From contig CP152425.1 of assembly GCA_038960095.1 (NCBI GenBank), positions 56,309 through 88,308 on the forward strand: a stretch of 32,000 nt of DNA. Direction: 5' to 3'. Position 1 is the stretch's first letter. Every line of letters starts with the position of its first letter. Of the stretch, positions 2,725 through 4,643 are shown one piece after another. The DNA comes from Candidatus Symbiodolus clandestinus (GTDB taxonomy: Bacteria; Pseudomonadota; Gammaproteobacteria; Enterobacterales; G038960095). Both the position numbers and the translations under genes were made by a program. The notes under the pieces were generated by a model. It was given only the letters and a program-made list of their open reading frames with translations, was not told the DNA's origin and made no database searches.

Positions 2725-4643
2725 GCGGCTGTGCATAAACCGGTGGCCATTGCAGGGCCTTCAGGGTTGTCTGCAGGAAGGTCAAGTGGAACCTCTGAAC
2801 CTCTAGAGTACGCGGCAGGCGGATTAAAGCACTCTCTGCATGGCAATATCTATCAGTTACAGCTGCTCATTCTGTTTATGAAGCGCGCTCTAGATAACAA
2901 CTACGACTTTCTTCTGGCCACGGAGATGAATGCCGCAGAGAAGTTTGATGATGTGGTGTTTCGCTATACTGAGCAGGGGGAAACACACTTTCGCTTCTTA
3001 CAAGCCAAACACCGTCAAGAGGAAACTCAGCGCCTCACGCTCCGTGACCTAACGAATCAGAGTGAAGGCGATTTTAGCTTATCCAAGTATTTTGCCTCTT
3101 ACCTCAAGATAAAAGATAAGAGCGAGTTTCAGGGTCACCAAGATTTCATTCTCTGCACTAATATCGATTTAGCAGTTGAGGAATTAAGAGGGGAAACATT
3201 CACTGTTGAAGAGATAAAAGTTCAAGATAGTTTTATAAATATACAAGACTCAACAAAAACCCCGCATCGGTATCGATTAACAGTCGATAAGCTCAGCGAT
3301 TTTTATAAACAGCTTAAAGTCAATCCAGAAGCACGTCAATTAGCTACGGTTTTAATGGAACGTCTAGAAAAGGGTGGGAAATTAGATTTAACCGTTGATA
3401 TTTTTAAGCGCTATCATCACGGGTTAGTAGCAAACCATATTATTGATATGCCAAATAATAAACTCCACAGTGATTTTGTCTCAGGCCATAGATTGTCTCC
3501 TTCTGCACAAAGTTTTCGTGAAATCTTTATTCAAACTGCTTTAAAAAACAGAATATATCAGAACAATCCAAACAAGCTTTGGGATGCATTCAAAAATAAA
3601 AAACTCTCTATCTCGAAAAATTTTGGTTCAGGAGATGAAACTTCCCCGTTTCCCACCAACTCTGCCATCGCTGCTTCAGAAATAGACGCGTTCTTTAAGC
3701 AGTTCACGCTTGCTGTTAATCAGCCCAATGAAAATCAATTGCGCACGGTTCTAGCCCGTGAGATAGGCCGCAAGATTCAATTTAATCTACTTAATAGTGA
3801 ATTGGCAGCTGACCACATTCAACGCCAGATGTTGGATTGGTTTAAAGAGAAAGGGGGGAGATTTTTAACTAAAAAGGAGGGGGAAAACTATTTTGCGCAG
3901 GCCTCAGCCAGAATCAACACCCTGTTGTCAACAGGCTGCAGTATAGAACAGGCTGCCAAGCTAGCCAATTATGGTATCCACTTTAGTCAAGGTGCTATCA
4001 CCGCACTCCAAAACTCCATACAGCCGAATTCGCGCGTTCTCCATCTGATAACTGCAGAGACGCGTTTAGAGGCGCTAAAGGTGTACCAACTCCTGCAAAC
4101 GTCCGAGTATCAGCAGCGGGATAGTGTACTCTTTACCGAACTCAGTACCCTGTCTTTGAAGAAACTACGCCAACAGCTATTTAAGGCTTTTAATGCCGAC
4201 AAAAGCCACCCCTTGTTAGTGATTGAGTGCTCCAGTGAAACTGTCAAGGGTGATATAACAGAGATAGTAGATCAGTTCGCGCCTATCCTGAAGAGACATC
4301 CGCAGAAGAAATTGATCATCATTGCTCCCCAAACACATCCGTTAGCCGAGGCTTTTAACGAACATCCAACCCTGTCTTACCACAGCGTGGTGGAAGCGCC
4401 CACCTTTAGCGAGTTAGCGGCAAAGACGCAACAGGCTCTGTTAGACAAAGAGGTCCTATTTCAAGGACATCGCGTCACCCTGCAGCAGCTGCTCCCCAGT
4501 GATTTTCCTAAGGACACTTTACCGCTGATGGACCTCATAGAGAGCAGTGAAGAGAAGCCGCTGCCGATTGGCGCTGCGCTTCCCCCTACACCCAGCGAGG
4601 TTGGTGAATCCCCCCGGGAATGTCGGAGACTATTTTTTTAGAA

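Follow-up and report, generated by a model that had tools for sequence, protein, structure and literature searches.

A probable inactivated gene for a nuclease-armed STAND-type switch protein in the chromosome of an insect symbiont

What kind of protein was encoded by the long open stretch that follows a lone ankyrin-repeat (ANK) module in the chromosome of Candidatus Symbiodolus clandestinus? The window analysed here, a 32,000-nucleotide (nt) stretch of contig CP152425.1 (positions 56,309 to 88,308) to which all coordinates below refer, contains at 2800–4604 some 600 codons that an initial annotation, made from the letters alone, read as a possible Cap4/DUF4297-like PD-(D/E)xK nuclease core followed by a degenerate NACHT/STAND-like region. 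Symbiodolus, an enterobacterial symbiont that lives inside the cells of its hosts and is passed on vertically, occurs across insect orders and has eroding, transposon-rich genomes (PMC11322605). Our analysis suggests that the locus is probably the 5′ half, now inactivated, of a gene whose product was an NLR-like, STAND-type switch protein armed with a nuclease.

Conservation among relatives is the first line of evidence for the nuclease core (module A, 2800–3234, + strand). Its motif codons lie where the initial annotation had placed them, with E42 at 2923–2925, D50-D51 at 2947–2952 and Q68-A-K70 at 3001–3009, and Q19, K96-Y97 and T120-N121 complete the set. Across 170 family members, mostly less than 50% identical to one another, Q19, E42, D51, K70, Y97 and N121 are invariant (170/170), Q68 is kept in 169 and D50 in 168, so that orthologues do conserve the E, DD and QxK positions on which the proposal rested. 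Since six residues are invariant in all 170 members, the motifs are far beyond chance. The three insect proteins that were checked also keep the nuclease motif residues, except for a histidine at D50 in the Phymastichus protein.

Profile comparisons connect these motifs to a known nuclease. Searching 177,635 PDB sequences with a profile of 27 diverse members (A3) retrieved Cap4 of Enterobacter cloacae (7yib_A, E=9.8e-4), in an alignment that pairs HG.YQ, E, FDD and QxK column by column and places family K70 on Cap4 K74; the K74A mutant entry, 7yia, scores 4.7 bits lower. An earlier profile spanning module A, the following insert and module B (A1) gave only one match in PDB, attributable to chance, and the core-only profile with more diverse sequences was needed. 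Module A also aligned by hhalign to a Cap4 alignment with a probability of 91.9% (E=7e-7, 117 columns, reaching the TN motif), this alignment being thin, as a search with a 96-amino-acid (aa) fragment of E. cloacae Cap4 (EcCap4) had yielded 7 short fragments. The PADLOC model SAVED_PDDEXK weakly matches two relatives on the same stretch (E=5e-4 and 6.6e-3). Pfam PF14130, the profile named in the initial annotation, was matched neither by the window protein (E≤1) nor by the 27 diverse members (E≤10), which says little because the 96-aa EcCap4 fragment misses it as well.

Structure prediction points in the same direction. The AlphaFold (AF2) model of residues 1–395 (predicted local distance difference test (pLDDT) score 84; predicted template modelling score 0.79) runs in the order helix, three strands, helix, strand (H13-32, E37-40, E52-58, E61-70, H94-105, E113-120), with E42 closing strand 1, D50-D51 preceding strand 2 and QAK closing strand 3. 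Foldseek returned Cap4-type folds as the best PDB matches, namely HerA-DUF4297, Cap4 (three species or entries), HamA, LmuA and Avs3 (8dgc_A, probability 0.89), followed by MspJI and DdmD; the Cap4-like matches have probabilities of 0.87–1.0 with modest E-values (2e-3 to 2e-2). The D50-x17-Q68-x-K70 spacing equals that of the D41/E59/K61 triad of HerA-DUF4297, which was established by mutagenesis (bioRxiv 10.1101/2024.10.24.620088). With conservation, sequence profile, structure model and motif spacing in agreement, module A is a predicted Cap4-like PD-(D/E)xK nuclease, in line with what had been proposed from motif recognition.

The reading frame leading into module A is broken twice, in the way that the initial annotation had indicated, and both lesions can be defined exactly. 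Translation in the repaired frame gives an N-terminal leader at 2210–2452 (+), in which a KRSRRSK motif, SD repeats and a segment rich in K, E and Q can be seen; the final 131 nt of this leader recur in a divergent ANK paralogue. The first frameshift is a 1-nt insertion at 2453 (+), recognised by comparison with the paralogue, which reads ...QKARIKKIQK...; removal of the base restores the frame, and the insertion sits at the exact edge of a 99% identical repeat arm. A single ANK module follows at 2454–2711 (+; Pfam Ank E=5.2e-11, Ank_5 E=4e-9), as had been described. The second frameshift (2712–2725, +) can be seen in the letters themselves, where CCTGTTG stands twice in tandem (a duplication of 7 bp), and dropping one copy fuses the ANK frame with the nuclease frame without a stop between them. 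With both lesions repaired in silico, a 795-codon frame lies open from the ATG at 2210 to 4604. By eye, the leader between 2283 and 2400 (the basic KRSRRSK, the SD repeats and a second basic run, QKRKN) resembles a eukaryotic pattern of nuclear localisation signal (NLS) and CK2 site.

The gene stops at an insertion sequence (IS), which directly abuts the coding sequence at 4604/4605. This element (4605–5938, − strand) belongs to the IS3 family, with 35-nt terminal inverted repeats (TGAATC.../...GATTCA) in the TG...CA form, an orfA with a helix-turn-helix domain (HTH_Tnp_1, E=3.7e-8) and an orfB with an rve DDE transposase domain (E=1e-23); HTH_21 was matched as well. We found no target-site duplication around it, the flanks being GTTGG| and |GTCCA, and no continuation of the gene beyond 4605 in any frame or elsewhere in the window, including by tblastn with two relatives, P0001 and P0002. 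These two observations rule out a simple IS insertion; because the target duplication is missing and the rest of the protein is nowhere in the window, the IS marks a rearrangement or deletion. Further along, an open reading frame (ORF) at 6739–6915 (+), ending in ...EPFYNRQRRHSTLGY, resembles the C-terminal end of a further IS3-type transposase, of which it would be a remnant; Pfam gave no match.

What was lost can be read from the relatives, 38 of which came from a first search. P0001 is the nearest of those that cover the whole remnant, with 52% identity over the full length; P0002, which comes from another Symbiodolus metagenome-assembled genome (MAG), matches the last 286 residues at 86% identity. 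P0002 runs past the position of the IS junction (...TPSEV|GGYYLER...; TPSEVGGYYLER) into a NACHT domain with GMGKS (E=1.3e-9), and NACHT likewise lies downstream in P0001, P0039 (6.4e-11) and P0044 (4.6e-10). After the NACHT domain come ANK repeats in L001 (the locus of P0001) and P0040. C-terminal tetratricopeptide repeats (TPR) are present in P0043, a Wolbachia protein with NB-ARC, and in P0068. Both the NACHT module with its Walker A and Walker B motifs and the C-terminal ANK/TPR repeat sensor are absent from the window. The window copy is a truncated former member of the NACHT-clade STAND NTPases, and a pseudogene, with two frame-breaking lesions and its NACHT and sensor half lost at the IS junction. 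In the locus of P0001 (L001 195–4874, from SRA run SRR27874673, 30–37% G+C) we also noticed an in-frame TAA at 2868–2870, between NACHT and the ANK repeats, and this gene may be a pseudogene too.

Decay is probably recent, because the remaining 600 codons are free of stops and retain every family-invariant residue, including all those of the catalytic site. Comparison of the remnant with the P0002 gene over 286 codons gave a ratio of nonsynonymous to synonymous substitution rates (dN/dS) of 0.83 at a dS of 0.09, consistent with recent inactivation and relaxed constraint. Programmed frameshifting was considered and is ruled out by the presence of two different lesions, the second a 7-bp duplication, together with the truncation at the IS.

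Between the nuclease core and the lost NACHT domain lie three further segments. A variable insert (3235–3660, +), delimited by alignment A1 and by domain coordinates across 177 relatives, differs widely in length between them. Module B (3661–3984, +), defined by the alignment, by domain mapping and by model elements E302-306 and H311-378, is a strand-plus-helices segment with an invariant AVNQPNE motif (Q308, P309, E311) and LDWFKEKGGRF. The third, module C (3985–4604, +), is the region in which the initial annotation had seen NTPase-like strands, and these were located at VLHLITAETRLEALKVY from 4036, HPLLVIECSSE from 4207 and KKLIIIAPQTH from 4306. Its model (pLDDT 78.7, from only nine input sequences) contains five strand-helix units: strand 1, VLHLI, starts at 4036 and is followed at the place of the P-loop by the four-residue loop TAET, while LLVIEC occupies the Walker-B and KKLIIIA the sensor-1 position. 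The top 50 Foldseek matches are all AAA+/ASCE ATPases (probability ~1.0, E=6.5e-4 to 8e-3, TM-score ~0.45), among them replication factor C (RFC) subunits, Rif2, Hda, clamp-loader delta, p97, NSF, the origin recognition complex (ORC) and SAMD9.

GK[ST] is missing from the P-loop position of module C in each of 99 relatives, so the lack of a P-loop is the ancestral, selected state of the family and not local decay; D56-S57, LLVIEC and KKIILIT are well conserved among relatives. No sequence-level match to module C was found in Pfam or PDB. The idea that module C arose by divergence from an NB-ARC or NACHT domain of the family itself was considered and is not supported by hhalign (probability 0.6% and 2.7%, respectively, against 94% for NB-ARC versus NACHT as positive control), only the sensor-1 strand and an 'L..SQ..LL' pattern being aligned. 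On the basis of its model and conservation, module C is a predicted conserved pseudo-NTPase with an AAA+/STAND-like fold, and that it is a degenerate STAND domain is a reasonable conjecture. The NTPase-like fold lacking GK[ST] therefore stands as initially annotated; the region is, however, not the NACHT domain of the family, as a NACHT domain with GMGKS follows in the relatives. Module C would most likely act as a non-catalytic spacer or a regulatory interface between effector and NACHT.

To place the gene in its family, we searched 1.84 billion cluster representatives with a family profile. At E≤1e-3 the search yielded 1,612 members, and at E≤1e-30 it yielded 448; lengths of 1,000–3,800 aa are common. 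The three conserved modules were mapped onto 177 family sequences, where two architectures were seen: A-B-C-NACHT followed by ANK, with module C in 109/177, and, in the remainder, A-B-NB-ARC followed by DUF7779 and TPR or ANK. Module B directly precedes the next NTPase-like domain in both. From the domain order of the relatives, the ancestral architecture of the window gene is a leader, one ANK module, module A, the variable insert, modules B and C, an active NACHT domain and C-terminal ANK repeats. By domain content, members combine a predicted Cap4-type nuclease, whose active-site motif is intact and invariant, with a STAND NTPase and an array of repeats. In P0110 (Phymastichus coffea, 3,502 aa), two A-B copies (144–442 and 1968–2151) are each followed by a Walker A motif, as if the entire nuclease-NTPase unit had been duplicated in tandem.

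This composition suggests how intact members could work. Binding of a trigger by the C-terminal repeats would lead the NACHT domain to bind nucleotide and oligomerise, which would bring the N-terminal nuclease domains together and render them active; the clustered nucleases would then cleave double-stranded DNA, so that the cell containing the protein dies or is arrested. Such an oligomerisation-activated DNase mechanism is likely by analogy with Avs3, bNACHT25, Cap4 and HerA-DUF4297, and it would hold whether the proteins are directed at the host or at phages.

Several points weigh against our interpretation of the locus as half of a nuclease-armed STAND gene. Nuclease and oligomerisation activity of the members are inferred by analogy, and the role proposed for module C is wholly conjectural. 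At the middle catalytic position stands a Q instead of E or D; Cap4 has the same, but across the superfamily it is the less frequent state. Pfam, NCBIfam and PADLOC gave no match to the 641-aa window ORF, and the PADLOC Avs and NLR models match neither the window protein nor six full-length relatives. Both frameshifts could in principle be assembly errors; they are unlikely to be sequencing artefacts, because a 7-bp duplication and a non-homopolymer insertion are atypical of such errors.

Where members occur bears directly on whom they act upon. Members with an identified source are proteins of Wolbachia and Candidatus Mesenet, proteins encoded on insect chromosomes (Athalia rosae, Onthophagus taurus and Phymastichus coffea, on chromosome-scale sequences of 32–33 Mb) and one protein on a eukaryote-looking metagenomic contig that also carries a reverse transcriptase and a Sina RING gene. 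When 185,579 bacterial species genomes were scanned with the A1 profile, 18 loci were found, two in unclassified Gammaproteobacteria/Pseudomonadota MAGs and 16 in lineages assigned below class, all obligately host-associated: Wolbachia, Midichloriaceae, Mesenet, other Rickettsiales, Rickettsiella, Rhabdochlamydia and Cardinium. Identified members are thus limited to arthropod endosymbionts of four phyla and insect genomes; we noted copies in Cardinium (Bacteroidota), Rhabdochlamydia (Chlamydiota) and Rickettsiella (Gammaproteobacteria) (L022, L011, L016 and others) besides those of Rickettsiales. A four-phylum spread confined to arthropod-associated intracellular bacteria implies repeated horizontal transfer. 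A scan of the bacterial genomes with a single protein had found no relative. The phage and plasmid collections that were searched contained no match to the family; one Wolbachia-type copy lies on an IMG/VR prophage contig.

It is possible, if short of an even chance, that intact members are host-directed effectors, delivered into the arthropod cell by the symbiont or through lysis by phage WO, and that the Symbiodolus copy is a discarded one. The ANK repeats and NLS-like leader would then target host proteins or chromatin, and either the nuclease would damage host DNA or the NLR-like body would jam death or immune signalling. Both the restriction of the assigned bacterial loci to obligate host associates and the chromosomal insect homologues fit this idea, as do the Wolbachia copies, which adjoin ANK genes, a SecA-like gene, transposases and a P2-type tail gene, a setting like that of the WO eukaryotic association module (PMC5062602). 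The KRSRRSK leader is common to the neighbouring ANK protein, and Symbiodolus encodes type III, type VI and type IV secretion systems (PMC11322605). However, secretion or translocation is only conjectural, proteins of 1,000–3,800 aa would be awkward substrates, the resemblance of the nuclease to CinB/CidB is not significant (Foldseek probability ~0.1), and a STAND-plus-repeat architecture fits a ligand-gated intracellular sensor rather than a simple toxin.

An anti-phage or anti-mobile-element function of the Avs/bNACHT type, with abortive infection through DNA degradation or superinfection exclusion by prophage WO, seems unlikely for the intact members. In its favour, the nuclease-STAND-TPR layout of the Wolbachia proteins mirrors Avs3, which is itself among the Foldseek matches, bNACHT25 carries a restriction endonuclease (REase) effector, and copies are located in prophages. 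Against these stand the failure of the PADLOC Avs and NLR models on full-length relatives as well, the absence of the family from free-living bacteria among the 185,579 genomes, unlike known defence systems, the abundance of homologues in insect genomes, and the flanking of the window locus by housekeeping genes with no defence island. The restriction to arthropods and their intracellular bacteria, together with the ANK modules, a basic leader and a genomic setting like the WO association module, leads us to favour a host-related role, either as effector or as captured host immune gene. Of the host-targeting effector or decayed defence gene offered by the initial annotation, the decay is borne out, and the effector reading is given somewhat more weight than the defence reading.

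Two further explanations were weighed. Module A could have an REase fold without catalysis, serving as a DNA-binding or oligomerisation module; inactive PD-(D/E)xK domains are known in general, a Q takes the place of the usual acidic residue of (D/E)xK, and nuclease activity is proposed here by comparison. We regard this as improbable, as EcCap4, a catalytically active enzyme, has the same QxK, its K74, the counterpart of K70, is the residue mutated in 7yia, and the near-absolute invariance of E42, D51, Q68 and K70 in 170 sequences fits purifying selection on an active site. Least probable of all is that the remnant ORF (2716–4641) is still expressed as a stand-alone nuclease plus pseudo-NTPase with a new function: its 641 codons are open and all family-invariant residues intact, but upstream only a TTG, itself within the frameshift zone, is available as a start, a start at the first ATG would delete helix 1 with the invariant Q19, promoter-like sites upstream of the gene are not above chance, the dN/dS of 0.83 suggests relaxed constraint, this exact ORF is not a called protein in a collection of 15 billion proteins, and the 177 relatives keep a downstream NTPase-type region unless they are truncated fragments.

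The surroundings of the inactivated STAND-type gene are neither a defence island nor a prophage. Divergently oriented to it is an intact multi-ANK paralogue (1–1783, −, running off the start of the window), identified by translation and Pfam (Ank_2 E=5.8e-44), with repeats of 339–372 nt; it comprises at least 594 aa in about five units of 113–124 aa, and the stretch in which it lies has a raised G+C content (54%). The two divergent genes share the same leader segment (SDSDSSQERLKKLKQQEQREQKRKNYILLATMLEVGIDQKARI) through a 131-nt inverted repeat of 99% identity (1598–1728/2322–2452), which looks like recent gene conversion or N-terminal reassortment. Other genes around the locus have housekeeping functions: a GloB-like metallo-beta-lactamase, a methyltransferase, outer-membrane beta-barrels, PepN, NAD-glutamate dehydrogenase and PyrD. 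Further neighbours we take, from reading their translations, to be MukBEF; the 1,484-aa ORF at 7667–12121 (−) reads like MukB in translation, with a very glutamine-rich centre containing many QQQQ runs. No SAVED domain was detected in the window or in the relatives, and the neighbours (ANK paralogue, IS and housekeeping genes) include no CD-NTase operon. In PepN (17843–20512, +) an in-frame TAG at 18833–18835 splits the gene into ORFs of 330 and 557 aa, making it another probable pseudogene. A 428-aa protein at 16402–17688 (+), in a stretch of 34% G+C, has one weak ANK match and is otherwise unannotated; it is at least 90% conserved in at least five other Symbiodolus MAGs.

On its own, the locus is of limited interest, a clean case of a gene that died recently in a symbiont genome that is eroding and rich in IS. 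The broader reading, which we put forward tentatively and consider somewhat unlikely, is that it belonged to a large unannotated NLR-like family common to arthropods and intracellular bacteria of four phyla, in which a Cap4-type DNase would take the part of death or effector domain, with an active NACHT or NB-ARC domain preceded by a fixed pseudo-NTPase. To our knowledge, insects are usually said to lack NLRs. If this reading is true, insects carry nuclease-armed STAND receptors, and symbionts and phage WO have exchanged receptors with their hosts to copy, trigger or jam a DNA-destroying immune switch of the host. The analysis itself links the nuclease class of Cap4, Avs3, Lamassu and HerA-DUF4297 to proteins of insect chromosomes and of Wolbachia, Cardinium, Rickettsiella, Rhabdochlamydia and Symbiodolus, and it provides a fold and a likely chemistry for a domain that has probably been on record since 2016, as no more than an orphan, 'eukaryotic-like' part of the WO association module. 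The family raises the questions of whether insects have nuclease-armed NLR-like receptors, in which direction genes have moved between host and symbiont, and whether the proteins are used on hosts, on phages or on each other.

How does the family compare with known systems? With Cap4 and DUF4297-type nucleases it has in common the fold and the motif order (HG.YQ helix, E, (F)DD, QxK), K70 corresponding to the catalytic K74 of EcCap4, and with HerA-DUF4297 also the spacing from D to (E/Q)xK. In Cap4, HerA-DUF4297, LmuA and HamA, the nuclease is switched on by a partner domain that drives oligomerisation. Unlike Cap4, HerA-DUF4297, Lamassu and Hachiman, the family has no SAVED, CD-NTase, HerA, LmuB or HamB partner, its controlling module being a NACHT or NB-ARC domain in the same polypeptide. 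The variable insert of 140–450 aa and module B with its NQPNE motif are likewise specific to it.

Similar in overall logic are Avs3 (PDB 8DGC) and REase-armed bacterial NACHT proteins such as bNACHT25, which are built from the same three parts, an N-terminal nuclease of REase fold, a STAND NTPase and a C-terminal repeat sensor; the effector of bNACHT25 is predicted to cut DNA on activation (bNACHT preprint). The family differs from both in the extra P-loop-less domain that 109 of 177 relatives have between nuclease and NACHT, in its N-terminal ANK modules, and in a distribution limited to arthropods and their endosymbionts. Module C has the same alpha/beta fold as the degenerate AAA+ domains of Rif2, clamp-loader delta and Hda-like proteins and, like Rif2 and delta, is without a working P-loop; it has no detectable sequence relationship to them.

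A further likeness comes from phage WO. The 'gwv_1093 N-terminal domain', of ~137 aa, was described at the N-terminus of Wolbachia TPR proteins in the eukaryotic association module, with homologues in many insects and one intracellular gammaproteobacterium, and was given neither fold nor function (PMC5062602). Family TPR/NB-ARC proteins from Wolbachia of Nasonia giraulti are likewise encoded beside SecA-like and ANK genes, and by this description and gene context our family is probably that of the gwv_1093 domain. In the literature searched, we found neither a Cap4/DUF4297 assignment of this domain nor the pseudo-NTPase domain. The pairing of a STAND NTPase with an effector of REase fold is a known type of system, of which this family is an unannotated variant with an unusual distribution across hosts and symbionts.

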